Shown: positions 29,961 to 60,815, counted from the first letter of the stretch. The stretch: 64,000 nucleotides of DNA from an uncultured Thermoplasmatales archaeon (GCA_964618505.1 CAZUBH010000008.1:15257-79256); one strand, 5' to 3'. Translations and numbers: made by a program. Notes: a model not told the origin generated them from the sequence alone.

Positions 29961-29961
29961 T

Positions 29962-30903: not shown

Positions 30904-30918
30904 AAGTTTAACACTCCA

Positions 30919-31074
30919 CTAATAATATTTTTTAAAACCAATCTCCTCTGCTTTTTCTCTAAAGCATTGTCTACATAAATGAAGTCCATATCTTCTTATT
31001 ATGCCTCGTCTTCTGCCACACTGCTCGCATCCTCTGTTTCTCCCGTAGATTTTCTTTCTTTCTTTTACTCTCAC
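30919..31074 (-). CDS. rps14: 30S ribosomal protein S14 type Z (uS14, zinc-binding); not present in the ORF track.
   Basis: Manual translation gives (GTG)[51 protein letters not shown] with CxxC...CxxC. The GTG start overlaps the L5 TGA stop (GTGA) and is preceded by GGAGGT. Confidence 0.8.
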
Positions 31075-31616
31075 TTTATGACCTCCAAGTTAAATTTTTC
31101 AACGATAAAATTTTCTGTTTCCTCTCTTGTAATTTTGTGTTTTTGAGGTATTTTTTTTCTGTCAATACGTCTGTTTTTTATTCGATATCCGCTCTTGTTC
31201 ATTGTGACAGAGATGTCCATCCCAAAAATTCCTATATCTGGATTATATTTTTGCCCTTCAAATAGCGTATGGTCCGGAATCCCAAAGGAAAAATTTCCTT
31301 GGTCATCTATTGAATAATCAGCAAGTTTATTTTCTCTAGTTTTAAATGCTTCAACTAAAAATTTGTCTGCAAGCCCCTTTCTTAAAGTCACCTTACAGCC
31401 TATGGGCATAAGTTTTCTTAATCCCCAATCCTTATTAGTTGTCTTAGATATTGTTCTAACAGGTTTTTGTTTTGTTAAACTTTCAAGAACAGATTCTGCT
31501 TTGCTTAGTTTCTCGCCAGCTTCTCCTACACCTATATTAACAGTAACTTTCCCGATTTTAGGTTTTACTGTGCTTTTTTGTTCCTTTTTAACTTTTTTTG
31601 ATGTTTTCGCACTCAT
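31071..31616 (-). CDS. rpl5: 50S ribosomal protein L5 (uL5).
   Basis: uL5 core ([22 protein letters not shown]...). Confidence 0.85.
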
Positions 31617-33012: not shown

Positions 33013-33024
33013 TATATCACACTT

Positions 33025-33423
33025 TCAAACTATTATGGATGCTAAAGAAGCAATTTTTGGCCATCTTTCTGCCGCTTCAAGAGCAACTGGCCCTTTTATC
33101 ATAGTCCCTTTTGTTTCGCCACTGTCAGTGACAAGTACTGCTGCATTATCTTCAAATTGAACCATAGTCCCATCTGGTCTTCTGAAAGGCCTTCTCTGAC
33201 GAACTATAACTGCTTTTAGGACTTGCCTTTTCATATCAGCCTTTCCTTTTTTTACGCTAACAATGACAGTATCTCCTACACCCGCAACCGGATATCTTCT
33301 ATGAACGCCCTTTAGTTTAGGAGTCATCATAATTTGAACAATTTTTGCACCAGTGTTGTCGATACAATTTAGACGAGCACCGATTGGCAATCCTCTCATC
33401 ATCCTTCCAGATATTCCTTTCAT
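33025..33423 (-). CDS. rpl14: 50S ribosomal protein L14 (uL14).
   Basis: [27 protein letters not shown] matches uL14. The start is chosen at the internal Met (13th codon of the track ORF). Confidence 0.85.
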
Positions 33424-33430
33424 TTTAATA

Positions 33431-33778
33431 TCACCCTTGCATTTTCTGAACCGTAACAAATGAAACTGATTTACTTAGAGGCCTGCATTCTGCTATCTTT
33501 ACGTCGTCACCAGGCTGAACTTTAATACATGGGGGGCAATGTGCTAAATATTTCGAAGTTCTTCTTTCATATCTCTCATATTTTTTCACATAATGCATAA
33601 AATCTCTTTTTACTGAGATTGTATCTGGCATTTTATTTGAGACAACTTTCCCTGTTATTATTTGCCCTCTAACAGGCAAGTTTCCATGGAACGGACAATT
33701 TTTGTCGCTACAGTTTTCACTAGGTGGTTTTATACTTAACCCAATGTTTATTTCTTCTTTTTTTGCCAATTCTTTCAC
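33431..33778 (-). CDS. rps17: 30S ribosomal protein S17 (uS17).
   Basis: Archaeal uS17 pattern ([29 protein letters not shown]...[18 protein letters not shown]). Confidence 0.85.
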
Positions 33779-34038
33779 CTTGATTTTTTAATACGATCTT
33801 CTGGCCTATATGCCAACCGAGATCCTTCAATGATTGTTTTTTTCCCTTTATATTCAAATTCAAAGGATGCAGTTTTTTTTGCAATCCTCTTTTTTTTACC
33901 ATTTACTTCTATAAGGAAAGTGTTCTTTGTCTCGTCAATAGTTATTCCAGATACTCCATTCCAATTGGGATCTAAGGAATCTTTGATTTTCACTTTCCTT
34001 CCTATTAGTTCATCTTTAACGATGATATTTTTTATCAT
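33775..34038 (-). CDS. rnp1: RNase P protein component 1 (Rpp29/Pop4 homolog).
   Basis: ELIGRKVKI...[16 protein letters not shown]...RPEDR. It sits between SUI1 and S17, its position in the archaeal cluster. Confidence 0.7.
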
Positions 34039-34081
34039 ATGATAATGTTTATTTTAAGGATTGATATTTGAGCTAATTGGT

Positions 34082-34381
34082 TTAAATTATCTCAACCATG
34101 AATCCCATTTTTTCAAGTGCTTCTTTTACCTTATTTCTGTGATCTCCTTGAAGTTCTATTTTACCTTCTTTTATTGTGCCTCCACAGGCACATATTGATT
34201 TGAGGTTGCTTACAAGAGCACTTACATCCATACCGTGTGGATCCAACCCTTCCACGATAGTCATAACTTTGCCGTACCTTCGTCTGTCAACGGCAATAGT
34301 TATGTTTTGCTGTTCTCTTGCTATTTCTTCACAAGCACATATCTCCTTAGGAAGACCACATTTTGGGCAAATCTCGCTCAT
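34082..34381 (-). CDS. sui1: Translation initiation factor aSUI1 (eIF1 homolog) with an N-terminal zinc finger.
   Basis: MSEICPKCGLPKEICACEE...KSICACGGTIKEGKIELQGDHR is the typical archaeal SUI1. Confidence 0.8.
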   Translation of the reverse strand: MSEICPKCGLPKEICACEEIAREQQNITIAVDRRRYGKVMTIVEGLDPHGMDVSALVSNLKSICACGGTIKEGKIELQGDHRNKVKEALEKMGFMVEII

Positions 34382-34584
34382 TTATTTTCTCCTTCCTCCT
34401 GCATGACAGTGAGTATTTTTGCTATAGTCATTCGAATCTGCCTAATTTTTCCTGGTGACGGAGGAGATCCTCCCATAGCTGACACTCCTCTTTCATGCAT
34501 AAGTTCTTCTTTCAGCCCTTTGAGCTTTTCAGCCCTTTCTTCTGGACTAAAATCTCTGATTTGTTTAGCTTTTAGAACCATCAT
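34378..34584 (-). CDS. rpl29: 50S ribosomal protein L29 (uL29).
   Basis: LKAKQIRDFSPEERAEKLKGLKEELMHERG matches uL29. Confidence 0.8.
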   Translation of the reverse strand: MMVLKAKQIRDFSPEERAEKLKGLKEELMHERGVSAMGGSPPSPGKIRQIRMTIAKILTVMQEEGENK

Positions 34585-35450
34585 TTAGCCTCTTCAATTA
34601 ATTTCTTTAGATTTTTAACAATTATTTCGGCAGTTTTTTTGCCAATACCCTCTATAGACATTATACTATCAATATCCATCTCATATAGTTCTTCTAATGA
34701 TTCTACTTTTGCTTTTTCAAGTTTTTTTACAACTGAAGGCCCAACACCTTGAATTTCTGCTACTTTTTTGATATCAGTCTTTTTAGCTTCTTTTTGTTTA
34801 GTTTCTTCTTTTTCAACTTTCTCTTGTTTTTTATCTGTCTTTTTTTCTTTCTCAGGTATTCTTATGTTTATTTCGTCCGGTAATACAGATTCCGGCTTCA
34901 TTATTCTGACTTTAACTCCAAGCACCCCTGCTTTTAGCTTTGCAGTTGCATAACCAATATCCATTACTTCTTTTGCAACTTCGCCGCAGTATTTAACATG
35001 CCCTTCTGTGAATTTCTCTGTTCTGTGTCTTGCACCTGTTAATTTGCCTGCAATAACAATTTGACATCCTTTCGCACCAGAATTCATAATTCTTCTTACT
35101 GTTGAGTGCCCTGCTCTTCTAAAATGCCATCCTCTTTCCAATGCCTCTGCAAGCTTTTCCGCCATAATTTGAGCATTTGTAGATGCACTAGCTCCTGCCT
35201 CTTGGATTTCAATCTGTGGGTTATCTACATCAAACTTATCCTGAATGTTTTGAGTAAGTTCTTTTATTTTTACTCCGCCTTTTCCAATAACCATGCCTGG
35301 TCTTTCTACTAAAATGTTAACTCTTGTTCCAATAGGTGTTCTCTGGATATTCATGCCGCCAAAGCCAGCTCCTTCTATTTCTTTTATTAAAAACTTTCTT
35401 ATTAATGATCGATTTGCGTTCTCTCTGACAAATTTTCTCTCGCTTGCCAT
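34581..35450 (-). CDS. rps3: 30S ribosomal protein S3 (uS3) with a Lys-rich linker and a C-terminal HhH2 domain (fusion).
   Basis: The KH-domain uS3 core (GMVIGKGGVKIKEL...) is followed by KEKKTDKKQEK... and two HhH motifs (EIQGVGPSVVKKL, SIEGIGKKTAEII). Confidence 0.85.
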   Translation of the reverse strand: MASERKFVRENANRSLIRKFLIKEIEGAGFGGMNIQRTPIGTRVNILVERPGMVIGKGGVKIKELTQNIQDKFDVDNPQIEIQEAGASASTNAQIMAEKLAEALERGWHFRRAGHSTVRRIMNSGAKGCQIVIAGKLTGARHRTEKFTEGHVKYCGEVAKEVMDIGYATAKLKAGVLGVKVRIMKPESVLPDEINIRIPEKEKKTDKKQEKVEKEETKQKEAKKTDIKKVAEIQGVGPSVVKKLEKAKVESLEELYEMDIDSIMSIEGIGKKTAEIIVKNLKKLIEEAK

Positions 35451-35896
35451 TATTCCGCCTCTTCTAAAATAATCTCAATATTTGTAGTAGATGTATTTTT
35501 ATCGGTGGCTCTGCCATAAGCTCTTGGCATGATACCTCTGATTATTCTGCCCTTATAGGCAGAAATATGTATAATTTTCATGCTTTCAACATCAAATCCT
35601 TTGTATTCCGCATTATTTTCGGCATTTTCCAATATTTTTAACATATACTTTGCAGCTTTTTTTGGATAACTACCGGGGCCGATACCCTTTTTATGGGCTC
35701 TTTTCTTTTTGTGAAAAACTGTGGGCAAAGCTCTTTTCATTTCGATGATTTCATTAAGATATTTTTTGGCTTTTTCGGCATTCATACCTTTTATTGCATA
35801 GGCTAAATTCATAGAATCTTTTGGAGAGCAATGAAGCTCATAACCATATGCCTTTGCAGTTTTGTCTGGATCCGATTCTGTTGAATATTTCGACAT
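35450..35896 (-). CDS. rpl22: 50S ribosomal protein L22 (uL22).
   Basis: uL22 fold (AKAYGYELHCSPKDSMNLAYAIKGM...). Confidence 0.85.
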   Translation of the reverse strand: MSKYSTESDPDKTAKAYGYELHCSPKDSMNLAYAIKGMNAEKAKKYLNEIIEMKRALPTVFHKKKRAHKKGIGPGSYPKKAAKYMLKILENAENNAEYKGFDVESMKIIHISAYKGRIIRGIMPRAYGRATDKNTSTTNIEIILEEAE

Positions 35897-47426: not shown

Positions 47427-49442
47427 CTAATTTCTATTTTTTTTTATTTTTTTCACTAAAGCAATAGTTATCAGTAAGAAAAATAATGGTAAAATTTCAA
47501 ATCCAGGAGTTGGTTTTGATATAGTTGGCTCTGGCACTTTCAACGGCTCTGAGGATTCCAGCTTTTCATAGATAATTGCATATGTAGATTCAATCACAAA
47601 AGTATCGTTTTTATCTGACACTATTAAATTAATTGAATAATTTCCAGATTTTGTATATCTATGGATTGGGTCTTTTATATTACTTGATGAATTATCTCCA
47701 AAATCCCAGTAATAAGTGTAATTTATATTTTTATTATCTGATAAATTGCCACCGTTTGTTTTTATATTGTCTTTTCCTGTCAAAATTAATATAATTTCAG
47801 TAATGTTGCAATGAAATTGAATGCTTTCATTTTCATATCCAGAATATGGCCCTCCTAAATCAACAAAAAATGATATGCTTGAAAGGGACATGTTTGATTC
47901 ATTTTCGTCATTTAATTCAACAATAACATATGTTGTATCAATATCCGTTTCTCCTGAATCATCTTTTACCTCAAGGCTAATAGTATGGTTTCCTGGTGTA
48001 AATGATTTTGTTGCTGTAGAAAAACCTAGATACATTTGATATTCCCCAAAACCATCATTTTCAAAATCCCATCTATATAACAAATTCTCTCCATCAGGAT
48101 CATAACTTCCCGAAGCATCAAAAACAACAGTTTCGGATTCACTAAAATATGGCCCTCCTGCATCAGCGATAGGAGGAATGTTGTCTTCGTTGTCGGTGAT
48201 AGTAACAGCGGCCGTATCTGTATCAGTTGCTCCTTCATCATCTTTTACTTCGATTTTTACAGTATAGATGCCACTTTCTGAATAGCTGTGGGAAAATGTA
48301 TTAGGCGGAAACCATCCTGTGTCATAAACACCATCATTTGTCCAATCCCATCTATAATATTCAATAATACCATCAGTATCTATACTATTTCTACCATCAA
48401 AATATATTAGTTCTTCAATTTCTGCACTATATGGCCCCCCTGCATCAGCTATTGGCGGTTGGTTTATTTCATTAAATATACCCAACGGATACCTATCTTC
48501 TCCATTACCCCAATAGATTTCATATGCAGTGTCTCCAATGCCATCTTCATCTGCATCAACTCCTTCATAATCATCCCAATAATTACCACCTAAGGGATAT
48601 CCATTGTCCCATATATTGTTTATACCATAATTTTTAACATTATTGTTAGGATAATTATTATCATTGAAATGATTGTAATAAATCTTATTATTTGAAGAAT
48701 ACGTACTAGCGAGTAGTCCTCCATCAATATTATTTTCGATATAATTTCCAATAATATCTGAATCATCACCATCTAATATTATACCAAATCCATTATTATT
48801 TATAACATTATTATTGGATATTTCAACATCGGAGCAAGATTGCCAAATCTTTATGCCATGATCGTTTTGAGAAATTGTGTTGTAACTGATTGTATTTTCA
48901 GAACCAGAGGAGATACCAATTCCAGGATATCCATTATTCTCAATAGTATTAGAATTAATTGAATTATAACTTCCAGATATCCAAATTCCCCCAAAACCAT
49001 TACCGGGATACTCAAGACCATTTCCTGAAATAATATTGTTCTGAATACTATTAGAATCCGAAGATACTTTGATACCGCAAGCAGAACTACTGCTCCCTCC
49101 GTTAACAATTGAAAAACCGCTGAGCGAAATCCCATCTTCATTTAATTGAACGGGCCAGTAATAATCTTCTGAATCTATAATCGTTGTTTGTTTGTTTTCT
49201 CCAGTTATTGAAATTGATATGTCAACAGCGATGTGTTCATAATAAGTACCGCTATAGACATAAATCGTATCGCCATTACTAGCTGCATCAATAGCATCTT
49301 GAATACTTGTATAATCTAGTCCACCATCATCATCAACATAAATTGTATCAGAAGCTTTAATAATATTATTTGAAAATCCAGAATAAATAGTTACGCCCAT
49401 AAGAAAAAAAACTATAAGAATTATTATTTGTTTTTTCATCAC
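47427..49442 (-). CDS. Surface protein with a signal peptide, a NosD-like beta-helix, PKD-like domains and a PGF-CTERM archaeosortase sorting signal.
   Basis: Beta-helix repeats with GGNYWDDYEGVDADEDGIGD. The C-terminus KPTPGFEILPLFFLLITIALVKKIKKNRN is the PGF-TM-basic tripartite signal. Confidence 0.7.
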   Translation of the reverse strand: MMKKQIIILIVFFLMGVTIYSGFSNNIIKASDTIYVDDDGGLDYTSIQDAIDAASNGDTIYVYSGTYYEHIAVDISISITGENKQTTIIDSEDYYWPVQLNEDGISLSGFSIVNGGSSSSACGIKVSSDSNSIQNNIISGNGLEYPGNGFGGIWISGSYNSINSNTIENNGYPGIGISSGSENTISYNTISQNDHGIKIWQSCSDVEISNNNVINNNGFGIILDGDDSDIIGNYIENNIDGGLLASTYSSNNKIYYNHFNDNNYPNNNVKNYGINNIWDNGYPLGGNYWDDYEGVDADEDGIGDTAYEIYWGNGEDRYPLGIFNEINQPPIADAGGPYSAEIEELIYFDGRNSIDTDGIIEYYRWDWTNDGVYDTGWFPPNTFSHSYSESGIYTVKIEVKDDEGATDTDTAAVTITDNEDNIPPIADAGGPYFSESETVVFDASGSYDPDGENLLYRWDFENDGFGEYQMYLGFSTATKSFTPGNHTISLEVKDDSGETDIDTTYVIVELNDENESNMSLSSISFFVDLGGPYSGYENESIQFHCNITEIILILTGKDNIKTNGGNLSDNKNINYTYYWDFGDNSSSNIKDPIHRYTKSGNYSINLIVSDKNDTFVIESTYAIIYEKLESSEPLKVPEPTISKPTPGFEILPLFFLLITIALVKKIKKNRN

Positions 49443-49475
49443 ATCTCTCCAAATTATTAATAATTTTATGCTTAA

Positions 49476-50699
49476 TTAATACATGCGGTTTTTTTCAATT
49501 TTAAAAAAGAAGGGGGAAGAATTACTCCAAGGTTTGATTAAAGGATAATTATCTTGATTATCCCCACCAGATATGTTGTAAGGCGTATCTCCAATGCCAT
49601 CACCATCTTCATCTGATCCAGTATAATCAATCCAGTAATTTCCTGACTCTCCGTCATCCCAAGTATTTGAACCAGTATCGTAAGCAGTTTCCCAACCAGC
49701 TCCTAAAAAGTTATTATTTACAATAGTATTGAAATCCGAGTTTAAATGAAGATATATATTTCTAAGACTACAAAATCCAATAGTATTACTTCTAATAATA
49801 TTGTTCGGCGAATGTTCAAGTAGTATTCCAATTTGTGAAATATCTGAAAGTAAGTTATAATCAATTAAACAATTTGTAGATAATTCTAAAGCAACTGCAT
49901 AAGTACATTGTTTAATTTCGTTATTAATAATTGAAACATTAGATGAATCTTGTACTAAAATACCTGCTTTATAAGCTCCACTATTTTGAATTGTAAATCC
50001 ACCAATAACAACAGAATCTGCTAGAATATCAACTACATGGTCTTGGTTATTACCATCAATGAAAACAAGACTTTTATCATGGCCTATCAACATTATCTCT
50101 TTATCTATTACAATATTTTCAAAATATAATCCATCATCAACATGAACTGTACCTTGTTCAGCTACAACATCTATACCATCTTGAATTGTATCAAAATGAT
50201 CAAAACCCCAACCAGTAGTATTTTCATTAAAATCATCATCAATATAAACATAATCTGGAGCTGAAGATTGTATAAACACCTGAAATTCATAAGAATCGTA
50301 TATAATTTGTTCTAAATAGTCTCCACAAAAAATTATATATTTATATTCGCCAGCTGAAAAATCTTCAGGTATTGATTGGGTTATTTCCATGCTTATTCCG
50401 CCATAAGGTCTAAGTCTAATATCCATAAAAGATTTAATCGGACCTAAAAAATGACCATTCGGCTCATGTTGGTACATAATCCACGCATCAACAGTTATAA
50501 ATTCAGCTTCAAAATTTCTTAACATGCCTGTATATTTGAATGATTCTCCCTGATAAACTTCTATAGGTAAATCAATCAAAATACAAATTCCTACATCATT
50601 AGTACTTGATATAGCGATTGGGATTATTGGTAGAAATAAAAGTGTTACCGTAAGTCCCAAAATGCATATTTTTCTAAATTTGTTTTTCATCTTTTTCAT
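49476..50699 (-). CDS. Secreted protein with an N-terminal about-120-aa domain (paralogous to 50848..51276) followed by a NosD-like beta-helix.
   Basis: Signal peptide. The beta-helix region reads GGFTIQNSGAYKAGILVQDSSNVSIINN and GNYWIDYTGSDEDGDGIGD. Confidence 0.55.
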   Translation of the reverse strand: MKKMKNKFRKICILGLTVTLLFLPIIPIAISSTNDVGICILIDLPIEVYQGESFKYTGMLRNFEAEFITVDAWIMYQHEPNGHFLGPIKSFMDIRLRPYGGISMEITQSIPEDFSAGEYKYIIFCGDYLEQIIYDSYEFQVFIQSSAPDYVYIDDDFNENTTGWGFDHFDTIQDGIDVVAEQGTVHVDDGLYFENIVIDKEIMLIGHDKSLVFIDGNNQDHVVDILADSVVIGGFTIQNSGAYKAGILVQDSSNVSIINNEIKQCTYAVALELSTNCLIDYNLLSDISQIGILLEHSPNNIIRSNTIGFCSLRNIYLHLNSDFNTIVNNNFLGAGWETAYDTGSNTWDDGESGNYWIDYTGSDEDGDGIGDTPYNISGGDNQDNYPLIKPWSNSSPFFFKIEKNRMY

Positions 50700-51380: not shown

Positions 51381-51454
51381 TGGGCCCGGCAGGATTTGAA
51401 CCTGCGGCCATCTGGTTATGAGCCAGACGCTCCGCCAGACTAAGCTACGAGCCC
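51381..51454 (-). tRNA. tRNA with anticodon CAU: elongator tRNA-Met, or tRNA-Ile2 if C34 is agmatidinylated.
   Basis: Minus-strand sequence GGGCTCGTAGCTTAGTCTGGCGGAGCGTCTGGCTCATAACCAGATGGCCGCAGGTTCAAATCCTGCCGGGCCCA. Anticodon stem TCTGG/CCAGA with loop CTCATAA, T loop TTCAAAT. CCA is not encoded. Confidence 0.8.
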
Positions 51455-51499: not shown

Positions 51500-52579
51500 G
51501 TGAAATTAAGGGCAAATTCTTTAATTGATTTTTTTATAATTGATTTTACAATGCCGCGACTAAGAACACTTGCTTTATATCCTTTCCTAAATGATGCGAA
51601 AACTTACATAAAAAATGATGGCCCGTCTGTAGAAGAACTATTGAATGATTTGGTGTATCAAAGAGCTAGATCAATTGGAATTGAAAGATTAGACAACGCC
51701 CTTAAAAATAGAGATGTAAAACAAAGAAGTTTAGCATCAGACACAGACTGCATAATGGAAATATTATCATATCCACTAGCAAGAATGGTAACGGTTTGTG
51801 TGGGAGATAACTTTTTAAAAAGAAGATATGCCCTTGGTGAAGCCTATCATGTTTATAAAAATCTTTTAGAAGAAGACATATCTTTTATGCTTGAAGTCGC
51901 AGAAGAGTTGCAAATAAAAGTAAAATATAATGATGAAAATAATGAAATTAAAATTTTTTTCAAGGATTATTTAAGGGCTGCACCAACAAGATACAAAGAA
52001 TGGAAAATGGTAAATAGAGATATGGAAAATGGCTTAATTGTCATTTCAAAAAAAGGGCTTGCAAGAATAATAATGGAGAAATTAAGATTAAAAATTAATG
52101 AGGAACTAGATTTACTAAAATGTAATAAATTAATATCCAAAACTTTTTCTAAAGACATATCTAAATTTCAAAATTATGTTAACGCATATAGAAAAAAAAT
52201 TGAAGTTGCTCCTATTGGTAAACTAAGCATAGAAAAACTCCCGCCATGCTTAAAAAATATTTTAAAATCAATTCAAGCAGGAGAAAACGTTGCTCATATG
52301 GGAAGATTTGCACTTGTTGCTTTTCTTAGCTCTTTAAAATTAAGTACAAATGAAATCTTGAAATTATTTAGTACCGCACCTGATTTTGAAGAAGATAAAA
52401 CAAGATATCAGGTTGAGCATATTACTGGAAAATCTTCTTCTACTTCTTACAAGTCTCCTGCTTGTGATAAGATGAGAACCTATGGAATTTGCCCGGCAGA
52501 TCAGATGGATGAGATATGTAAAAGAATAAATCATCCTTTAAGCTACTATAATAAAAGATGGAGAGAGGAGAAAAAATGA
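51500..52579 (+). CDS. priL: DNA primase large subunit PriL with a C-terminal Fe-S domain.
   Basis: Archaeal PriL size and layout. The C-terminal cysteines in PACDKMRTYGICPADQMDEICKRINHP, together with an upstream Cys in LPPCLKNI, would supply four 4Fe-4S ligands. Confidence 0.7.
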   Translation: MKLRANSLIDFFIIDFTMPRLRTLALYPFLNDAKTYIKNDGPSVEELLNDLVYQRARSIGIERLDNALKNRDVKQRSLASDTDCIMEILSYPLARMVTVCVGDNFLKRRYALGEAYHVYKNLLEEDISFMLEVAEELQIKVKYNDENNEIKIFFKDYLRAAPTRYKEWKMVNRDMENGLIVISKKGLARIIMEKLRLKINEELDLLKCNKLISKTFSKDISKFQNYVNAYRKKIEVAPIGKLSIEKLPPCLKNILKSIQAGENVAHMGRFALVAFLSSLKLSTNEILKLFSTAPDFEEDKTRYQVEHITGKSSSTSYKSPACDKMRTYGICPADQMDEICKRINHPLSYYNKRWREEKK

Positions 52580-53178
52580 ATCATTTTGTTACATTTGAGG
52601 GAATCGACGGGTCTGGCAAATCTACTGTTTCAAAGTTAGTCTATAAAAAACTAAAATCCATGGGATATGAAGTTGTTTTGACTTTTGAGCCTACAAATTC
52701 AGATATCGGTAAATTCGTTCAAAAATGCATTAAAACACAAAATGATCCTTTTGTCACTTCTTTTGCATTTATACTTGATAGAATTCAACACTCTCTTGAA
52801 ATAAAAAAATGGATTGAAAAAGGAAAAATTGTATTGTGCGATAGATATTCAGATTCAACTTATGCATATCAAGCAGTGCAACTCGAAAAATTTGTAAAAA
52901 ATCCTATTAAATTATTAAAAGATTTATCAGAAAATAAAATCCAAAAACCAGATTTAATCTTTTTATTTGTTATAGACCCTAAAAAATCATTAAAACGAAT
53001 TGAAGATAGAGATGAACTGATTCCTTTTGAGAAAATATCATTCCTTGAAAAAGTACATGATAATTATTTGAAACTGTCCAAAGATAAAAATTATGAAAAA
53101 CTCGATGCAACAAAAGATATTGACTTTTTAGTTGAAAAATGCGTTTCAAAAATTTTAGGTGGAAAAATTGAAAAATAA
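52558..53178 (+). CDS. tmk: Thymidylate (dTMP) kinase.
   Basis: P-loop FVTFEGIDGSGKST and DRY motif CDRYSDS. Confidence 0.8.
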   Translation: MERGEKMNHFVTFEGIDGSGKSTVSKLVYKKLKSMGYEVVLTFEPTNSDIGKFVQKCIKTQNDPFVTSFAFILDRIQHSLEIKKWIEKGKIVLCDRYSDSTYAYQAVQLEKFVKNPIKLLKDLSENKIQKPDLIFLFVIDPKKSLKRIEDRDELIPFEKISFLEKVHDNYLKLSKDKNYEKLDATKDIDFLVEKCVSKILGGKIEK

Positions 53179-53812
53179 TTTTAAACTAGTCATTTTTGAT
53201 ATAGATGGAACTCTACTTGAGCAAAGATCAATTTTTGTTTTTGCAGAAAAATTCGGATTTTCTAAGAAACTAATGGGATGTATTAAATCTGAAAAAAACC
53301 CATGTGAAAAAAGTATTGAAATTGCCAGTTATTTAAAAGGGGTAAACATTTTGAAAATGCTTGAAATTTTCAGAAGCATTCCATTGCAAAAAAATGCTGA
53401 AAAAACAATAGAGAAGTTAAGAGAAAAAAACATTGTAACTGCTCTTGCTACAGATGGATACACCTATTTTGCAAATGATTTAAAAAATCGATTAAAAATT
53501 AATTACGCTTTTGCCAATAATCTTATATTGGACAAAAACATTGTAATTGGCAAGGTTAAACCACATAATACTGAGATGAGGAGATGTTCTTGCGGAAAGA
53601 TATATTCTATCTGTAAGGAAAAAGTATTAGAAGATCTTTGTAAAAAACTCTCTATAGATGAGAGTGAAGTAATTGCAATCGGAGATGGTTTAGTAGATAT
53701 TGGTATGATTAAAAAAGCAGGTCTTGGAATAGCATATAAAGCTCCCAAAGAAGTTCAAAAAAATGCTGATTTAATAACAGATGATCTTATCGATATATTA
53801 GATTATATTTGA
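53159..53812 (+). CDS. HAD-superfamily hydrolase, subfamily IB (phosphoserine-phosphatase-like).
   Basis: Motif I VIFDIDGTL, a helical cap domain, motif IV GDGLVDIGMIKKAGLGIAY. It overlaps tmk by 20 nt. Confidence 0.65.
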   Translation: MEKLKNNFKLVIFDIDGTLLEQRSIFVFAEKFGFSKKLMGCIKSEKNPCEKSIEIASYLKGVNILKMLEIFRSIPLQKNAEKTIEKLREKNIVTALATDGYTYFANDLKNRLKINYAFANNLILDKNIVIGKVKPHNTEMRRCSCGKIYSICKEKVLEDLCKKLSIDESEVIAIGDGLVDIGMIKKAGLGIAYKAPKEVQKNADLITDDLIDILDYI

Positions 53813-53828
53813 TATTTGAGGTGAAAAA

Positions 53829-55031
53829 ATGGATATGAAACAGGAGGAAATTACTACACTTCATGATTTAAATTTAAATGAAAAGAGATTAATGAAATAT
53901 GTAGAAGATGTATCCGTTGAAAGACCAGTTTCTGTAATTCTTCCAATGCTTTATGGTGAAATCAAAAATAACTCACTTGAAAATATTATAAAAGAGCTAA
54001 ACAAATGCAAGTATCTAAAAGAAGTTGTAATTCCATTAGCTGCTCAAACTGAAGAAGAATTTAACCACGTTAAAAAATTTTTTGGAAAACTTGAGATTCC
54101 AAAACTTATTATGTGGTGTAATAGCCCACAAATACAAAATCTTTTAACGTCTCTAAAATCAGAAGGATTAAATCTGTTAAAATATCGTGGTAAAGGAAGA
54201 GACGTTTGGCTTGCACTAGGAATAACAAATATTAGAGCATATGCAGTAGCTCTGCATGATGCAGATATTCAAGGTTATACAAAAATGATACCAACAAAAC
54301 TTTTATTTCCTATACTGGAGCCGGAACTTGATTTCAAATTTAACAAAGGATATTATGCTAGGGTTGATTTGGATAGAACGATTATGTATGGGAGGGTTTT
54401 CAGATTATTTTTACACCCTCTCTTAAAGTCTCTTGTTGATCTGTTAGGTATCGAGCCAGATTTTGTTAGATTTATGAGATCTTTTAGATATCCAATTTCA
54501 GGTGAGTTTGCTCTGACTAGCGATCTTGCAAGAGATTTGGATATTCCAGGCGGATGGGGAATTGAAGTTGGAGTCATGGCAGAAATTTACAGAAATGTCG
54601 CTAAAAAAAGAATTTGTCAAACAGATTTAGGATTTTATGAGCATAAACATCAAGATGTTGGTGATTCATCTTCAGGACTTGTAAAAATGTCTGGAGAGAT
54701 ATTTAAGACGCTCTTAAGGGTTATAATAGAAGAAGATAAAATCCAAATTTCAAGGCCGTTTTTATTGTCACTTCGTGTTTTATATCAAAGAAATGCTCAA
54801 GATGCAATTAGGAAATATCATGCTGATGCCCATATAAATGGTATAAGTTATGATAGACATTTAGAAGAAACAATGGTTGAAAAATTCAGCAAAGAAATGA
54901 TGATGGCAGGAAGTAAATATATGTTAAAACCTGTAGGAACTAGAATGCCTGACTGGTTTAGAACTATTTCTGCGCATAAAAAAATAAGAGAGGAGATTCT
55001 TGATATTGTATTGGAACAAAATGGGGTTTAA
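53829..55031 (+). CDS. GT-A fold retaining glycosyltransferase resembling glucosyl- or mannosyl-3-phosphoglycerate synthases (GT81/GT55-like).
   Basis: RGKGRDVWLALG (compare GKGEALW of GpgS) and HDADIQ (DxD) motifs. A 400-aa protein with a helical C-terminal extension. Confidence 0.45.
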   Translation: MDMKQEEITTLHDLNLNEKRLMKYVEDVSVERPVSVILPMLYGEIKNNSLENIIKELNKCKYLKEVVIPLAAQTEEEFNHVKKFFGKLEIPKLIMWCNSPQIQNLLTSLKSEGLNLLKYRGKGRDVWLALGITNIRAYAVALHDADIQGYTKMIPTKLLFPILEPELDFKFNKGYYARVDLDRTIMYGRVFRLFLHPLLKSLVDLLGIEPDFVRFMRSFRYPISGEFALTSDLARDLDIPGGWGIEVGVMAEIYRNVAKKRICQTDLGFYEHKHQDVGDSSSGLVKMSGEIFKTLLRVIIEEDKIQISRPFLLSLRVLYQRNAQDAIRKYHADAHINGISYDRHLEETMVEKFSKEMMMAGSKYMLKPVGTRMPDWFRTISAHKKIREEILDIVLEQNGV

Positions 55032-55034
55032 ATA

Positions 55035-56276
55035 ATGAACCAAGAATGGAATAGAGGACTAAGTTTAGATAAAGAAGTTTTAGAAAAATGCAAAAAAATG
55101 AAACCTGTTGATATAATGGTGGGGGTTTTATGCAAGGATGTTGAGCCAACCATTTTAAATGTATTAAAAACAATTAATGAAGGCTTATACAGATATTTCC
55201 CCGACTATAAGAAAGCAATAGTGGTAAGCGAAGGCGGATCTACTGATAAAACAATGGATGCAATAGGCCTTTTTCAACCATACAATAGTGTAAAATTCAT
55301 GGTCACAAAGGATATAACAGATGGCGGTAAAGGAGCTGGAGTAATGACGATTCTTGAAATTGCACATGAAGCAGAAGCCAAATGTGTAGTTCTGATGGAT
55401 GGGGATCTTTTAAGTATAAAACATGGATGGGTGCATTCTATTGCAAATCCCATAAAATATGGTAGAGCAGATTTAACTGTCCCGTATTATGTTAGAGATA
55501 AAAATGATGGAGTTATTACAAACAATTTAGTATATCCATTTACTAGAGCTTTATATGGTATTGACATAAGACAGCCAATAGCTGGCGAATATGCTCTTTC
55601 AAGAAATCTTTATGAATTGCTAAGAAATCATCCTTTATTCCCTCCAGATTTTGGTGTTGATATCTTTATTCTCACAGTTGCAGCAGCAGAAGGAATGTAT
55701 GTTAAAGAAAGCTTATTTTCATTAAAAATACATGAATCTACAACACGTTATCTAGAACCAGAAAAATTTCTAATACCTATGTTTAGAAAGGTCATAAGCG
55801 CAATGTTTAAACTAGCTAATTATTATGAAGATTATTGGAAAAATAGAAGCTGTGAGCAATTTAGAAGCAAACACTATAGGGAATGCTTTAGCCAAAAACC
55901 CATTCCTGTAAAAATTGACATTGAAAATATGAAAAAGTCGTTCATTCAGGAATTTGAGACTTCAAATGAAATTATGAGTCACTATTTACCAGAAAGCATT
56001 ATGAAAGACTTACTTCCAATTATTAATAATGGTAATGGTATCGACTCAGAACTTTGGGCCGAGATAGTTTATAATTATGCAGCAGCCTTTAAAGATACTG
56101 AAAGAGACCCAGATAAATATCTTCTTTTAGATTCACTTAAAACCCTGTGGATAGGGCGCTTTGTTAGTTATGCTAAGGAAACTAAAGATATGGATATAAA
56201 CGAAGCTGAAAAAGTTTTGCAAAAGCAAGCAGAAATATTCGAAGAAAAATTCAACTATTTGAGATCAGTTTACTAA
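55035..56276 (+). CDS. Second GT-A glycosyltransferase of the GpgS/MpgS-like (GT81-like) family.
   Basis: VVSEGGSTDKT (the DxGSTDxT motif), GGKGAGV and MDGDL (DxD). Confidence 0.45.
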   Translation: MNQEWNRGLSLDKEVLEKCKKMKPVDIMVGVLCKDVEPTILNVLKTINEGLYRYFPDYKKAIVVSEGGSTDKTMDAIGLFQPYNSVKFMVTKDITDGGKGAGVMTILEIAHEAEAKCVVLMDGDLLSIKHGWVHSIANPIKYGRADLTVPYYVRDKNDGVITNNLVYPFTRALYGIDIRQPIAGEYALSRNLYELLRNHPLFPPDFGVDIFILTVAAAEGMYVKESLFSLKIHESTTRYLEPEKFLIPMFRKVISAMFKLANYYEDYWKNRSCEQFRSKHYRECFSQKPIPVKIDIENMKKSFIQEFETSNEIMSHYLPESIMKDLLPIINNGNGIDSELWAEIVYNYAAAFKDTERDPDKYLLLDSLKTLWIGRFVSYAKETKDMDINEAEKVLQKQAEIFEEKFNYLRSVY

Positions 56277-56624: not shown

Positions 56625-59600
56625 TTACATCCATGCGTCAAGACCAGTTTGTTGGGTAGGCATTTCAACGGATAATCCAAATGCTCCTTGTATGTAATTT
56701 TCAATCATTTTTTTATACCAATCAAGATCAATTTCGTTTGTAGATTTTAGATAGTCAATTGGACACATGTAATCAATGGGTTTTACACCACTTTTAGATG
56801 GGTTTGTTATACCTGGAAGAGGTCTTTTTGTGACAACAAATTTAAGTTTAGCTCTCGATTTTATCTGTCTTCCAATTACTTTTTCTAGGGCCATTGCTCT
56901 TTTAGCAAAAGTAGAAGGGCTTCCGTCTTGATTTAATTTATATCTTCTTGCCGGCTGAACAGACTGAATTAATGTTAAATCCTCTATATCAACTGTTGAT
57001 AAGTCAAGTTTTTCTAAAACTTCTTTTGTTTTTTCCATTATAGCATTTTTTACAGATTTTCTTGCTTCTTCTTCATCATCCCAAGATGTATTCTCCTTTA
57101 TTACTTTAATCATGATTTCTTTTAGAACTTTCCTTGCAATGTTTGCTTTATCAGAACCTTTAAAATTGTTTCCTTTTGTATTCATTTCTAGTTTGCCATT
57201 TTTACTATCAAAAATTAAATAATTCTTATGTTTTACAAAAATCATTGAATCGTGTTTTTCAGGTTCTAGTTCAAAATCAGGATAATTTAAATCTTTTTGC
57301 CATTTTTTATTACAATCTTCAATCGCATTTAGGGCTATCTCTGGCTTTGTTATCCATTTATCTTCATTAATTTCAATATTCAAACTTAAAGATTTAGAAA
57401 TTTCAGTTACATTTCCAGCTGATTTAGAACATCCAAGATAAATTCCATCCGTATCTCCATATACAACTCTTATACTTTTTTTCTTTAAGTAATCTAAAGC
57501 ATCTGCAAGAATAATTTGTCCTTTTGTTGTAATTGCGGCTGCACCCCACAAATTAAATTGCCTACCTGTAACAGTTGGTGCAGAAAGTATTCCATGTGTA
57601 TTGTGTAAAATAATCCCTCCGTTTGCATCTATAAAATTTTCATTTCCTTCTATACTTAGGTCATATACATATTCAGAACTGGGATCAACATATTCTATAT
57701 GTTTTGGCGGGATAGCATAACAATCGTTACATGATTGTTTGTTACCTTTGTAATAACCAATCATCCTTGTGTTATACGTCTGATCATATTGCCTAAAATA
57801 TGTGTTGGTTTTTACACCCCATTGTTTTTGAAGTGTTATTAAATCCGCATTTAGACTTTGGCTATTTGTTGTGAATCTTCCATGTGGTACAGAAGATGGC
57901 ATTGAAAACTTAATATTACCATCACCTTTCATATATGCATCAAAAAATGCTCTTCTTACCGGTTCTTTAGAAGATAGTATTTGCCAAGGAATTTGTTTAC
58001 ATCTACTTGAGCTACCACATGATAAAATGCTATCAAAAAGATAATCAACAATTTTAGCATGAAGTGTTGACACATAAGTATGTGCATCTTCAAGCCTATT
58101 TATTGTATAAACTGGGGCGCCAAGAATCTCATTAGAAAGTTTTCTAATTCTTTCATGCATTTCTTTTTGTGAATTTGAAAAAGTTATATAATAGCTAGAA
58201 TGGCCATTTACCACCTTTCTTGAAGTGTGGCCTTCAGATATATAATATCCAATAAGTTCTGCTAATCTTTCATCAATAGAAATTTTTGATTTTATTCTGC
58301 TTGATTTTCTTCCATTTGATCCAACGGTAATATAATCATATAAATCATCTTTAAATTGAATATTTTTAAGTTTATCGAGAGGTACTTTAATATACGGCAA
58401 AAGAACGCTATCTTTTAACTTTATATTCATCAATTTATTTTTTAGCCTGCTATTAAAATGAATAAGATCATTTTTTTCGATAAAAGCAAAGAAATCAGTA
58501 CTATTTGCTTCCTTGCATAAATTGATATCGTGTTTTTTTTCAATGGAGGGAATCTTTTCTACATGAGCTAAAAGTGTTTTTTCATTAATTTCTGCTACGT
58601 TAATTTCTTGCATTCCTCCATCTTTTATAGTAAAAACACTATGATTTGGAGTAACTACGGTAAAACCACTTTTGGTAGTAATTTTAATAAGTTTTTTTGA
58701 CCATTTATGCCGAACGACTTGCTTTATTTTTTTTATTTCAGCTTTTCCATTTTTATTTACAGATATTGCTTGCCAATTCTCATCAATTTCTGAAATTTCA
58801 AACTGTGTTCCGTTAATATTTTCAATTCTACAACCTTTCTGTATAAAGGAATCAACGAATTCTCCAATAGGTTTATTGATCAAGTATCCGTCTGGTGAAA
58901 CTAATATCACTTGTTGGCCATAGTCAACACTTCCGGCATTACGAGCACCTTTCATGCTTTGATACATCATTTTGAGCCTGTTAATTTCAGATTTATCATT
59001 TTTATTTTTAGACTCTTTTAATTCTTGTTTTATTTTTGAAATCATATTCATAATGCCAGTCATTGAAAGATTAACGACACCTGGTTTTCTGTCTATTTTA
59101 ACACCTATCATATATCCTTTATCTGCATAAGAGTCGGCGCTTTCTACTTCTCGCCAGTTGACATCGATCTCATTAAAAAACTGTTTAGGCATCTTTTTAA
59201 GCCATATCCATTCATCAGGTTTTTCGTTTTTACAAGCAAGTTTTACAGTATCTGCGCCAATGTTCAAAGCTTTCAATATAGTGGGATACATTGCACCAAC
59301 ATCGGCAACTAAAACGTAATACCAAGGTACAAAATGAGAATTAGCATCTTTATCTGGTTTTATTGTCATTCCGCCAGGCATATGATAACTTATTGTATCG
59401 TCTGAATCTTTTGGATTTTCGTTAAATACAACATATGGGCATTCCACCCAATTAGGCATCTCATTACCATATTTAATAACTCTTAAAACATCCTTTGCAA
59501 GCATATCCTTTTGTTTTTTTGCTTTACTTACAATTTCGGATTTTGTGTTACAATCTCTAAAATACTTAGTTAGATTTTGTGTGATTGATTTAACTCTACA

Positions 59601-60815
59601 TATGGGCGGCATAATTTTTTTATGTTTACTACTTCTTATCATCGACATGTGGTCCCACATATTTACCGCGCCAGATGGAAGAAGCATATCAAATGGCATA
59701 CATGTTGTAAATGCAAGGGGCAAAGCTTGTTGTATTAGATTTATTGTTACTCCGGTTTGTTCCTGTATATCTTGCTTATTGTATTTCATTGTTCTTTTAT
59801 CTAGTTTTATTTCTGATGGACTAAGATAAACCCTGTCTTTTATGTCAATTCCAAGAAAAGGTGCCAAAAATTTAAGTCCATACTCGTTCAAGAAAGGATA
59901 AAATTTTCTTGCTGCAAGAAATGTATCAAAATTTGAAGGATACATTTGTACAACATCCGTACCAGTTCCAAAATGAAAACTTTTGTCTGATTTACAATAA
60001 TTATTTACGAAATAATGCAGTTCTTTTTTTTCTTCATTTGATATTTTGCTATGATGTTCTTTTAATAACAACTTTATTCTATTATATAATTGGATATTGT
60101 CAAAGCCTGTTATATTGTGTCCTGATATAATGTCGTATTTTTTTGCCACCCTGCAAAATTCTGTGATATTCTTTATTTCTTCATCAATGTTTGGAGAGAC
60201 AAGTTGCTTTATTTCTATGTTCTCAAAATCAGAAGGACAATCAATTATTTCAAAACTAAATTCTTCCGTTTCCAAGTCCTTTTTTGATTCAAATTTTATT
60301 TTAAAATCAGAGTAACCTATTATATCTATGGGTATGTCGCTTTTCCCTTCAGAAAATTGAGTTGTTTCAATATCATAAATTAATACTTTTAAATCCTTTT
60401 TTTGTCCTTTGGAATCAAAAATCCACCCCATATCTTGAGCAGCTATATCTGTTAAAGATCGTTGCTGATAGGGTATATCATGTTCTGCAGTAAAAACCCC
60501 ATGTTCAAAAAATAAATAGTCACTCACTTCAGGAACAAAATATGACTCTTTTGTAAAAACTTTGAATACATTTCTTTTCTGTTCAAAATCACAAAAACTT
60601 CTATATTCTTCAATTTCTCCAAAATCAATTATTTTTGAAAGTTTTTCATGATTATTTTTATTTAAATTCCAACGTTCAATTAATTCTTTTCTTTTTTTTT
60701 CAGCACTTTTTTCTTGAGGAACGATAGCTAAAAAATACGGATTGTGAACATCTGAAATTTTCTTTGGTTTTTCATTTTGAAAATAAAGCGAATCTTGAGA
60801 TATTCCTAGTAACAT
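56625..60815 (-). CDS. polB: Family B DNA polymerase (PolB) interrupted in-frame by one 444-aa LAGLIDADG intein.
   Basis: Exonuclease motifs YDIETT and SGHNITGFD. Motif A is YYVLVADVGAMYPTIL, motif C is VVYGDTDGIYL. The extein is 952 aa in total. The intein lies in the motif B region (see the separate intein feature). Confidence 0.9.
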   Translation of the reverse strand: MLLGISQDSLYFQNEKPKKISDVHNPYFLAIVPQEKSAEKKRKELIERWNLNKNNHEKLSKIIDFGEIEEYRSFCDFEQKRNVFKVFTKESYFVPEVSDYLFFEHGVFTAEHDIPYQQRSLTDIAAQDMGWIFDSKGQKKDLKVLIYDIETTQFSEGKSDIPIDIIGYSDFKIKFESKKDLETEEFSFEIIDCPSDFENIEIKQLVSPNIDEEIKNITEFCRVAKKYDIISGHNITGFDNIQLYNRIKLLLKEHHSKISNEEKKELHYFVNNYCKSDKSFHFGTGTDVVQMYPSNFDTFLAARKFYPFLNEYGLKFLAPFLGIDIKDRVYLSPSEIKLDKRTMKYNKQDIQEQTGVTINLIQQALPLAFTTCMPFDMLLPSGAVNMWDHMSMIRSSKHKKIMPPICRVKSITQNLTKYFRDCNTKSEIVSKAKKQKDMLAKDVLRVIKYGNEMPNWVECPYVVFNENPKDSDDTISYHMPGGMTIKPDKDANSHFVPWYYVLVADVGAMYPTILKALNIGADTVKLACKNEKPDEWIWLKKMPKQFFNEIDVNWREVESADSYADKGYMIGVKIDRKPGVVNLSMTGIMNMISKIKQELKESKNKNDKSEINRLKMMYQSMKGARNAGSVDYGQQVILVSPDGYLINKPIGEFVDSFIQKGCRIENINGTQFEISEIDENWQAISVNKNGKAEIKKIKQVVRHKWSKKLIKITTKSGFTVVTPNHSVFTIKDGGMQEINVAEINEKTLLAHVEKIPSIEKKHDINLCKEANSTDFFAFIEKNDLIHFNSRLKNKLMNIKLKDSVLLPYIKVPLDKLKNIQFKDDLYDYITVGSNGRKSSRIKSKISIDERLAELIGYYISEGHTSRKVVNGHSSYYITFSNSQKEMHERIRKLSNEILGAPVYTINRLEDAHTYVSTLHAKIVDYLFDSILSCGSSSRCKQIPWQILSSKEPVRRAFFDAYMKGDGNIKFSMPSSVPHGRFTTNSQSLNADLITLQKQWGVKTNTYFRQYDQTYNTRMIGYYKGNKQSCNDCYAIPPKHIEYVDPSSEYVYDLSIEGNENFIDANGGIILHNTHGILSAPTVTGRQFNLWGAAAITTKGQIILADALDYLKKKSIRVVYGDTDGIYLGCSKSAGNVTEISKSLSLNIEINEDKWITKPEIALNAIEDCNKKWQKDLNYPDFELEPEKHDSMIFVKHKNYLIFDSKNGKLEMNTKGNNFKGSDKANIARKVLKEIMIKVIKENTSWDDEEEARKSVKNAIMEKTKEVLEKLDLSTVDIEDLTLIQSVQPARRYKLNQDGSPSTFAKRAMALEKVIGRQIKSRAKLKFVVTKRPLPGITNPSKSGVKPIDYMCPIDYLKSTNEIDLDWYKKMIENYIQGAFGLSVEMPTQQTGLDAWM
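57600..58931 (-). mobile_element. Intein (444 aa) in polB motif B (region III) with a LAGLIDADG homing-endonuclease domain.
   Basis: The intein begins with Ser: NAG|SVDYGQQVILV. Block B is TPNH. Two LAGLIDADG-type motifs are present (LAELIGYYISEGH and FFDAYMKGDGN). The C-terminus is ILHN|THG with the +1 residue Thr. Both junctions keep the frame (N-extein 628 aa, C-extein 324 aa). Confidence 0.8.

Follow-up and report, generated by a model that had tools for sequence, protein, structure and literature searches.

Persephonella marina reportedly carries clustered ggs, gpgS and gpgP genes that provide two routes to the compatible solute glucosylglycerate (GG), and Methanococcoides burtonii is said to use a two-step GpgS/GpgP pathway. 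Mannosylglycerate synthase (MGS) of Rhodothermus marinus (GT78; PDB 2bo4, 2y4j) is a one-step enzyme that transfers mannose; we know of no linkage of it to gpgS. The phosphatase used by M. burtonii is an MpgP-like HAD-IIB enzyme (PMC3240985, Table 3). Petrotoga mobilis and Rhodopirellula baltica have a mannosylglucosylglycerate (MGG) pathway in which GpgS acts first, then the GT4 enzyme MggA (530 aa in R. baltica) and finally a HAD-type phosphatase, MggB; its genes are sometimes consecutive (PMC3736172). We present here three adjacent genes of an uncultured Thermoplasmatales archaeon that probably form a cytoplasmic cassette making GG; gene sets of this sort are already known, but the phosphatase in this one is drawn from a family that one would not have expected.

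The genes lie in a 64-kb window, the whole stretch of DNA that was analysed (64,000 nucleotides), and were assigned as follows:

53159..53812, + strand: HAD, 217 aa, GTG start; HAD-IB, phosphoserine-phosphatase-like hydrolase, candidate GpgP analogue.
53829..55031, + strand: GT1, 400 aa; GpgS, Methanococcoides burtonii type.
55035..56276, + strand: GT2, 413 aa; Ggs-like/MGS-like GT-A glycosyltransferase with a C-terminal helical domain, probable glucosylglycerate synthase.

The initial annotation had placed a HAD phosphatase and two tandem glycosyltransferases at 53159 to 56276, and three co-directional ORFs are indeed found there. The 5′ end of HAD overlaps the upstream tmk by 20 nt, and gaps of 16 nt (HAD to GT1) and 3 nt (GT1 to GT2) separate the genes. 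The same three were called on independent assemblies, with amino acid identities across relatives of 71 to 85% for the glycosyltransferases and 53 to 61% for HAD. Each occurs in well over 100 sequence clusters and in many Thermoplasmatota MAGs, and this degree of conservation marks them as genes rather than chance ORFs. No membrane segments are predicted in any of the three products.

The cassette abuts priL and tmk in the same direction. The order HAD-gpgS-GT2 is kept after priL-tmk in CP070724.1, where a GT4 gene is placed between gpgS and the GT2 homologue. On a Thermoplasmatota contig from JGI, the same order follows a PKD protein gene beside an MscS channel gene, without priL or tmk, so the linkage to these two genes is probably incidental. 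In CP070798.1, HAD is intact next to priL-tmk, gpgS is truncated to residues 1 to 158, and GT2 is lost; HAD may therefore have a role independent of the glycosyltransferases. Searches of the 64-kb window by tblastn with representatives of glycerate kinase, GlgA, GT4 and MPGP returned no match. A scan for sigma-70 promoters and terminators, which carries no information for an archaeon, gave fewer promoter-like sites in the sequence than in its shuffles. Such biosynthetic capacity had been called unexpected for a small-genome archaeon, which it is not: the complete genomes of relatives measure 1.9 to 2.3 Mb, and a GGS gene has already been reported as acquired at the base of the thermoplasmatotal order Thermoprofundales (PMC9585477).

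Judged by its sequence, GT1 is a full-length homologue of the M. burtonii-type GpgS. It aligns end to end with the NCBIfam model NF040724 (GpgS_Meth), residues 1 to 396 of 400 on profile positions 1 to 397 of 402, at 558.9 bits (E = 5.8e-168). This score lies below the curated equivalog cut-off of 700 bits, which is genus-narrow, since a homologue from Methanolobus vulcani also falls short of it (689.5 bits); homologues from Bathyarchaeota and Planctomycetota score 543 and 386 bits. Identity to Methanolobus homologues is 47 to 48%, the PDB sequence matches are GT81 GpgS/MpgS structures only, and NCBI and JGI both give close relatives the name glucosyl-3-phosphoglycerate synthase. The motifs RGKG (residues 119 to 122; loop segment RGKGRDVWLALG), DAD (144 to 146, in HDADI) and PISGE (222 to 226), together with a His, align with GKG, DSD, PLGGE and AHRNR of M. 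hassiacum GpgS. A GKG-type loop and a DxD motif are thus present in both glycosyltransferases, as initially annotated (GGKGAGV and MDGDL in GT2). The DxGSTDxT-like segment ascribed to both is found in GT2 (EGGSTDKT, residues 66 to 73) but not in GT1, where the equivalent site reads VVIPLAAQTEEE. The two proteins are distant kin, with 25% identity over 136 residues (E = 0.004).

HAD has Pfam Hydrolase/HAD matches and exceeds the cut-off of TIGR01488 (HAD-SF-IB; 69.3 bits against 45). Its best profile is TIGR00338 (serB), its best PDB match is the Methanocaldococcus jannaschii phosphoserine phosphatase (PSP) 1f5s (HAD-IB; E = 5e-19, 33% identity), and JGI names its relatives SerB. It resembles PSP in fold class and length and has the complete set of four catalytic HAD motifs, namely FDIDGT (D14xD16), T98-D99, K153 and GDGLVD (D176/D180). 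Unlike PSP, it carries an insertion of 11 residues, Cys among them (RCxxGxIYSIC), ahead of the motif III Lys, and its gene is linked to gpgS instead of to serine biosynthesis genes. In PSP, Glu20 and Arg56 hold the serine moiety (PMC6321591). HAD has R23 and I55 at these positions, both near-invariant in the gpgS-linked family, with the Arg56 column less certain than the Glu20 column in the gapped alignment of the cap region. The initial annotation had named a phosphoserine-only prediction as evidence against the pathway, and here the outcome is mixed: serB is the best profile, but the score of 114.6 bits is under its cut-off of 144.15, and two phosphoserine-specific residues are replaced.

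Among MPGP profiles, the sole match of HAD is partial, at 20.4 bits to PRK00192.1-5 (cut-off 362). HAD-IB homologues with 31 to 43% identity lie directly upstream of GpgS-like genes in Methanocellales (locus L007) and Bathyarchaeia (loci L023 and L030), and no MPGP-type gene was found in these clusters or in the 64-kb window. In all, HAD directly precedes gpgS in four archaeal lineages whose clusters lack a classical MpgP/GpgP-type gene. This linkage, together with replacement of the serine-holding residues, makes HAD a candidate glucosyl-3-phosphoglycerate (GPG) phosphatase from a HAD subfamily other than MpgP/GpgP.

We consider it rather unlikely that HAD is instead a housekeeping phosphatase, SerB or another enzyme acting on small molecules, that happens to be cotranscribed with priL, tmk and the glycosyltransferase genes; GPG would in that case either lose its phosphate to an enzyme encoded elsewhere or not mark the end of the pathway. 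The serB profile, the PSP structure and the SerB names of its relatives point that way, as does its retention beside priL-tmk in CP070798.1 after loss of the glycosyltransferases. Against this stand the sub-threshold serB score, the family-wide change of Glu20/Arg56 to Arg/Ile and the lack of an MPGP-type gene in the clusters or the window. The HAD-then-GpgS arrangement, moreover, is also present, with GpgS of different subtypes, in Methanocellales and Bathyarchaeia, and adjacency to gpgS is also seen in a Thermoplasmatota context without priL or tmk.

GT2 belongs to a family of proteins of about 400 aa whose closest solved full-length relative is the one-step MGS. Its own Pfam matches are weak, at 26.5 bits to glycosyltransferase family 2 and 24.8 bits to PF21969 (MGS_GT), the latter below the gathering cut-off of 27; PF21969 is matched at E ≤ 1e-3 by 35 of 50 members of the GT2 family. 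An AF2 model (pLDDT 93.2) has R. marinus MGS as its top fold match, over the full length (TM 0.70/0.76, about 417 aligned columns). MGS is likewise the best PDB match of a family profile (E = 5.8e-22), in an alignment that reaches MGS residue 367, and both the fold and the profile match take in the C-terminal domain of GT2. The two enzymes share a GT-A domain followed by a C-terminal helical domain, a DxD motif, a metal-binding His and an acceptor motif. D122xD124 (the DGD in MDGDL), H233 and R154/D158/I161-T162 of GT2 align with D100xD102, H217 and R131/D135/I138-T139 of MGS. All of the 50 family members have D122/D124, R154, D158 and T162, and nearly all have H233 and I161. In MGS, T139 binds the glycerate carboxylate, a role in which I138 shares (PMC2581804); R131 and D135 are also counted among the carboxylate-binding residues.

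GT2 and MGS differ in sequence, with 16 to 17% identity, and in the sugar, since MGS transfers mannose and the GT2 family is annotated as glucose-transferring. JGI names GT2 homologues glucosylglycerate synthase, and NCBI names them only glycosyltransferase (10 family members checked). The name glucosylglycerate synthase (Ggs) is also used for the family in the study of Thermoprofundales (PMC9585477). A homologue named Ggs by Prokka has been placed in GT81 (PMC8790579). With glucose transfer taken from the family annotation, GT2 is a probable glucosylglycerate synthase. The initial annotation had described two GT81/GT55-type 3-phosphoglycerate synthases, a description that suits GT1, with its full-length NF040724 match, and does not extend to GT2. 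Two other identities for GT2 were rejected: MggA is a GT4 enzyme, while GT2 has no GT4/Glycos_transf_1 match and is modelled as GT-A; and a published text on MggS gives no family assignment linking that enzyme to GT2. Arg261/Asn260 of GpgS was considered as a discriminator between 3-phosphoglycerate and glycerate acceptors and dropped, because Arg261 is assigned to contacts with the nucleotide phosphates and the 3-phosphoglycerate phosphate is disordered (PMC2581804).

The neighborhood of the GT2 family was surveyed in the best 80 of 597 tblastn matches. The contig scan used the pattern [IV]RQPIGG[DE][FYM], which the IRQPIAGEY of the window does not fit, so the window's own clade is absent from these 80 loci; Persephonella is likewise outside them. 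Many flanks end at contig ends, and ORF calling was crude, being poor in some GC-rich loci, for which reason the GpgS-neighbor counts rest on tblastn. Among the best 80 loci, a GpgS gene flanks the GT2-family gene in 35 (23 M. burtonii-type, 9 GT81-type and 3 divergent). Other neighbors in the same 80 are an MPGP-family phosphatase (21 loci; TIGR01486, 227 bits against a cut-off of 164.75), GT4 (16), a glycerate 2-kinase-type DUF4147+MOFRL protein (13) and GlgA (7). The GT2 family is also fused to GT81 GpgS in three architectures (P0257, P0265 and P0304), and a triad of GpgS, MPGP-type phosphatase and Ggs-like protein is found in many bacterial loci (for example, L014, L037 and L060).

A synthase-plus-phosphatase pathway for a compatible solute, as initially annotated, is the best reading of the cassette. 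By homology, GT1 would move glucose from NDP-glucose to the 2-OH of D-3-phosphoglycerate, giving GPG. Gene linkage and the active-site changes suggest that HAD would then strip the 3-phosphate to give GG, standing in for the classical HAD-IIB MpgP/GpgP. GPG and phosphoserine are both built on a 3-phospho-propanoate skeleton, and C2 is their only point of difference (O-glucosyl in the former, amino in the latter). This would fit a PSP scaffold in which the amino-binding Glu has become Arg and the carboxylate-binding Arg has become Ile. Ggs/MGS-like one-step synthases would act on acids of the glycerate type, gripping them by the carboxylate and adding the sugar at the 2-OH, and GT2 would most likely make GG directly from NDP-glucose and D-glycerate, a second route such as that reported for P. 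marina.

The cassette and the P. marina cluster would share three roles, those of a GpgS of the M. burtonii type, a phosphatase and an additional GT-A enzyme annotated Ggs, to which GT2 is likened by annotation. They differ in that the phosphatase here is HAD-IB (PSP-like), not HAD-IIB MpgP/GpgP, and that its gene comes first. The M. burtonii pathway is matched end to end in its GpgS, and differs in the GT1 score (559 bits against the cut-off of 700) and in its MpgP-like HAD-IIB phosphatase. The MGG pathway likewise opens with GpgS and closes with a phosphatase of the HAD type, but its second transferase, MggA, is unrelated to the GT-A enzyme GT2.

From the presence of two synthases, an MGG-type product had originally been suggested. 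Since GT2 is an MGS-like GT-A enzyme and MggA is GT4, MGG does not follow from there being two glycosyltransferases, and GG is the likelier product. We give little credence to the corresponding reading in which GPG or GG receives a second hexose from GT2, yielding a diglycosyl-glycerate (mannosylglucosylglycerate or glucosylglucosylglycerate). Tight linkage and fusion of the GT2 family with GpgS are what consecutive pathway steps would lead one to expect, and GT4 genes in 16 of the best 80 of 597 loci suggest that some lineages may make diglycosides. P. marina, for its part, reportedly accumulates glucosylglucosylglycerate. However, the known MGG enzyme is of another family, and no GT4 was found in the 64-kb window. 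Furthermore, the invariant R/D/I-T residues of GT2 are those that, in MGS and GpgS alike, place the carboxylate of the glycerate so that the 2-OH of the same molecule can attack, and their retention points to a glycerate-type acceptor rather than to a sugar hydroxyl of GG. The product of the cassette is thus most likely GG, not MGG.

It is highly improbable that GT1 and GT2 attach sugars to proteins or lipid carriers (for example, in S-layer glycosylation or dolichyl-phosphate hexose synthesis), the alternative offered in the initial annotation: the weak Pfam family 2 matches and a match of GT2 to AglJ (17.8 bits, cut-off 325) are outweighed by the end-to-end GpgS match of GT1, by the lack of any hydrophobic segment in either protein (maximum Kyte-Doolittle values over 19 residues, 1.43 and 1.36) and by the poorer agreement of GT2 with dolichyl-phosphate mannose synthase 5mlz than with MGS (E = 1.8e-6 versus 5.8e-22; TM 0.42 versus 0.70). 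Both enzymes are soluble and of the GT-A type, and among characterised proteins they come closest to the glycosyl-(3-phospho)glycerate synthases rather than to family 2 enzymes directed at lipids.

A bolder form of the GG proposal, which we regard as doubtful, has two linked parts. GPG phosphatases of the HAD-IIB MpgP/GpgP type and of the mycobacterial histidine-phosphatase type are known, and HAD-IB would be a third, independently recruited class, with the phosphoserine pocket re-lined (Glu to Arg, Arg to Ile) and the Cys-containing insertion added. The Ggs-family enzyme, instead of duplicating GG synthesis, would act as a reversible valve of the pathway in the manner of sucrose synthase, converting GG and ADP to ADP-glucose and D-glycerate. 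Such a valve would account for the frequent fusion or adjacency to GpgS and for the neighboring glycerate 2-kinase-type (13) and glycogen synthase (7) genes in the best 80 of 597 loci.

The GG assignment provides a concrete osmolyte or stress-solute pathway for uncultured sediment Thermoplasmatota and corrects the earlier MGG proposal. A gene routinely annotated SerB is probably no phosphoserine phosphatase, which bears on calls of both serine biosynthesis and osmoadaptation in metabolic reconstructions from MAGs. Across the family, the strong linkage and fusion of Ggs-like proteins with GpgS prompt one to ask why a cell would retain, side by side, two ways of making one solute.

In the window, priL, tmk, a HAD hydrolase gene (HAD) and two glycosyltransferase genes (GT1 and GT2) form a close-packed block of five ORFs running in one direction on the + strand, followed by a convergent polymerase gene:

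51500-52579, + strand, priL (ORF call)
52558-53178, + strand, tmk (ORF call)
53159-53812, + strand, HAD hydrolase, overlapping tmk by 20 nt
53829-55031, + strand, GT1, after a 16-nt gap from HAD
55035-56276, + strand, GT2, after a 3-nt gap from GT1
56625-60815, - strand, family-B DNA polymerase with intein, convergent, downstream of GT2

Independent assemblies carry identical gene calls for the block, and HAD, GT1 and GT2 each have more than 100 close relatives in Thermoplasmatota metagenome bins (53-61%, 74-85% and 71-84% identity, respectively). All three are genuine conserved genes, and the initial annotation was correct in observing a cluster of a HAD protein with two glycosyltransferases. 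GT1 and GT2 are remote kin, aligning at 25% identity across 136 residues (E 0.004). Because PriL of relatives can be aligned only from residue 17-18 of the window ORF, the real priL start is probably an internal ATG near 51551. One of the two tRNA genes in the window (51381-51454, - strand) lies directly upstream of priL, at the beginning of the block; the other is at 4281-4365 (+). The 1,396-aa polymerase ORF matches Intein_splicing, LAGLIDADG_3 and, faintly, DNA_pol_B in Pfam, and its intein carries a LAGLIDADG homing-endonuclease domain. The - strand at 47427-50699 and L001 from 15793 onward encode several large proteins that appear secreted, with domains of the right-handed beta-helix (NosD/Beta_helix) and PKD types; each has an N-terminal hydrophobic segment, and a single one has an additional C-terminal segment. 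At approximately 25800-35500 (-), some 15 short ORFs (99-289 aa) abut one another in a stretch where GC and AT skew are both strongly negative; they may represent an operon of the ribosomal-protein type.

[quoted passage not shown] This score is under the curated cut-off of 700 bits, which calibration with homologues from Methanolobus vulcani (689.5 bits), Bathyarchaeota (543) and Planctomycetota (386) shows to be genus-narrow. Characterized enzymes of R. baltica and Persephonella marina have been described as relatives of this type (PMC3736172). When solved structures were searched with the GT1 sequence, GT81 GpgS and MpgS were the sole matches, and the alignment to GT81 spans the GKG loop, the DxD motif, a PLSGE-like loop (PISGE) and the metal-binding His. 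Close relatives are labeled glucosyl-3-phosphoglycerate synthase in NCBI and JGI. GT1 very likely functions as GpgS and would convert NDP-glucose and 3-phosphoglycerate to glucosyl-3-phosphoglycerate (GPG). The motifs initially quoted for the glycosyltransferases are present, except that the DxGSTDxT-like segment occurs in GT2 only (EGGSTDKT), with none in GT1.

Its sequence places HAD clearly in class HAD-IB. The best profile is serB (114.6 bits, under the 144.15 cut-off), the set of catalytic motifs is complete, and the best structure match is M. jannaschii phosphoserine phosphatase (PSP; E 5e-19). In PSP, Glu20 binds the amino group of the serine moiety and Arg56 its carboxylate (PMC6321591), whereas the aligned HAD positions hold Arg23 and Ile55, a state common to nearly all HAD relatives; HAD and its relatives also share an 11-residue Cys-containing insertion. 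GPG and phosphoserine have a common 3-phospho-propanoate skeleton and differ at C2 only, so it is chemically plausible that a PSP scaffold was recruited to act on GPG. Two kinds of GPG phosphatase (GpgP) are known, the MpgP-like HAD-IIB enzymes and the mycobacterial histidine phosphatases (PMC3240985); no report of a HAD-IB-type GpgP was found in the literature searched.

The complete 2.32-Mb genome CP070724.1 has the order PriL-Tmk-HAD-GpgS-GT2 homologue, with a GT4 gene inserted on the opposite strand between gpgS and the GT2 homologue (8882-10069 of the extracted locus, L083). On JGI contig Ga0645781_00151, HAD-GpgS-GT2 follows a PKD protein, and PriL and Tmk are absent from its surroundings. 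An MscS-type mechanosensitive channel gene (10095-10922 of locus L086) adjoins this cassette, as does a CNNM/CBS protein, and the channel neighborhood fits an osmotic role of the cassette. In Methanocellales (L007) and two Bathyarchaeia (L023 and L030), a HAD homologue immediately precedes a GpgS-like gene, and a Nitrososphaeria contig (L068) has one close to its GT2 homologue (31-43% identity to HAD); no MPGP-type gene was found in these clusters. In the 1.92-Mb relative CP070798.1, PriL, Tmk and HAD are intact, gpgS is reduced to residues 1-158 (first 158 codons, 75% identical; L085 7661-8135) and GT2 is absent, which looks like a recent loss of the pathway with the phosphatase retained. A housekeeping phosphatase unrelated to the pathway is an unlikely but serious alternative for HAD. 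The probable reading is a non-orthologous GPG phosphatase, labeled SerB by pipelines, that would remove phosphate from GPG to give glucosylglycerate (GG).

Pfam matches of GT2 are weak (GT2 26.5 bits; MGS_GT 24.8 bits versus a cut-off of 27). An exhaustive search yielded a family of ~1,330 clusters at 50% identity, most of them ~400 aa long and 27-45% identical to GT2 across the full length, and G98, G100, D122, D124, Y152, R154, D158, T162, Q180, P181, G207 and W341 are invariant in a 50-member alignment. AlphaFold models GT2 with high confidence (pLDDT 93.2). The top PDB fold matches of this model are without exception entries of mannosylglycerate synthase from Rhodothermus marinus (MGS, GT78; E 3e-14, TM 0.70/0.76), superposed over the whole chain, C-terminal helical domain included, whereas the match to GT81 GpgS structures is confined to the GT-A half (TM about 0.46). 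The family profile likewise finds MGS first in the PDB (E 5.8e-22) and GpgS second (1.7e-16), aligning D122xD124, R154, D158, I161-T162 and H233 of GT2 with D100xD102, R131, D135, I138-T139 and H217 of MGS. The acceptors of MGS and GpgS, D-glycerate and 3-phosphoglycerate respectively, are held at their carboxylate by the I138/V186 main-chain N and the T139/T187 side chain (PMC2581804). Since these MGS residues align with GT2 residues, GT2 retains the apparatus to glycosylate a glycerate-type acid. Several close relatives bear the JGI product name "glucosylglycerate synthase" (Ggs), a GGS gene was gained at the root of Thermoprofundales, a Thermoplasmatota order (PMC9585477), and a Prokka-named glucosylglycerate synthase of Thermococcus was placed in GT81 (PMC8790579), consistent with a GT-A enzyme. 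On indirect evidence, GT2 probably belongs to the Ggs family and would offer a one-step route from NDP-glucose and D-glycerate to GG. MggA was ruled out as its identity, being a GT4 enzyme (530 aa in R. baltica; PMC3736172), and transfer of a further sugar onto GPG or GG by GT2 is improbable. Dolichyl-phosphate mannose synthase matches the GT2 model more weakly than GT81 GpgS does, and a lipid- or protein-directed role of GT1 and GT2 is a very remote alternative.

Species-representative genomes were scanned with the GT2-family alignment, and the best 80 of 597 tblastn matches were taken as loci, in which recurrent neighbors were defined by clustering flanking ORFs. The hosts span many bacterial phyla plus Methanolobus, Methanocellales, Bathyarchaeia, Nitrososphaeria and Thermoplasmatota. 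A GpgS gene, often abutting the GT2 homologue, lies in the available flank of 35 of the 80 loci by tblastn (23 burtonii-type, 9 GT81 actinobacterial-type and 3 divergent). Fusions with bona fide GT81 GpgS (397-437 bits on PRK13915; cut-off, 262) have three architectures: GpgS + GT2 family (P0265), GT2 family + GpgS (P0304) and GT2 family + universal stress protein domain (Usp) + GpgS (P0257). The set P0257, P0265, P0304, P0291 and P0247 also includes a natural fusion to a TrkA_N domain and a 1,179-aa protein with three glycosyltransferase stretches. An MPGP-family HAD-IIB phosphatase (TIGR01486, 227 bits versus 164.75) is near the GT2 family at 21/80 loci, and same-strand triads of MPGP phosphatase, burtonii-type GpgS and GT2-family gene occur, for example, in L014, L037 and L060. 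Such a triad corresponds to the one reported for P. marina, where ggs, gpgS and gpgP are reportedly clustered and Ggs reportedly couples ADP-glucose to D-glycerate, yielding GG in a single step. A DUF4147+MOFRL gene, of the glycerate 2-kinase family, is found at 13/80 loci, mostly abutting the GT2 homologue (at L007 9248-10591, L012 2332-3687, L015 9215-10546, L025 1578-2981, L038 9308-10642 and others), and GlgA at 7/80; a search of the whole 64-kb window returned a homologue of neither. GT4 is a neighbor at 16/80 loci, and lineages with this gene, such as that of CP070724.1, could make diglycosides.

Because no membrane segment is predicted in HAD, GT1 or GT2, the pathway would be cytoplasmic. 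Its product is more likely glucosylglycerate than the mannosylglucosylglycerate-type compound first proposed. The capacity had also been called unexpected; the pathway is ordinary, and the lineage already carries its annotation (GGS gain; PMC9585477), leaving the probable non-orthologous GPG phosphatase as the only, modestly novel element. Speculatively, the Ggs-family enzyme may be reversible, converting GG to ADP-glucose and glycerate, which, if true, would account for the fusion and linkage to GpgS, the glycerate-kinase-type genes and GlgA.
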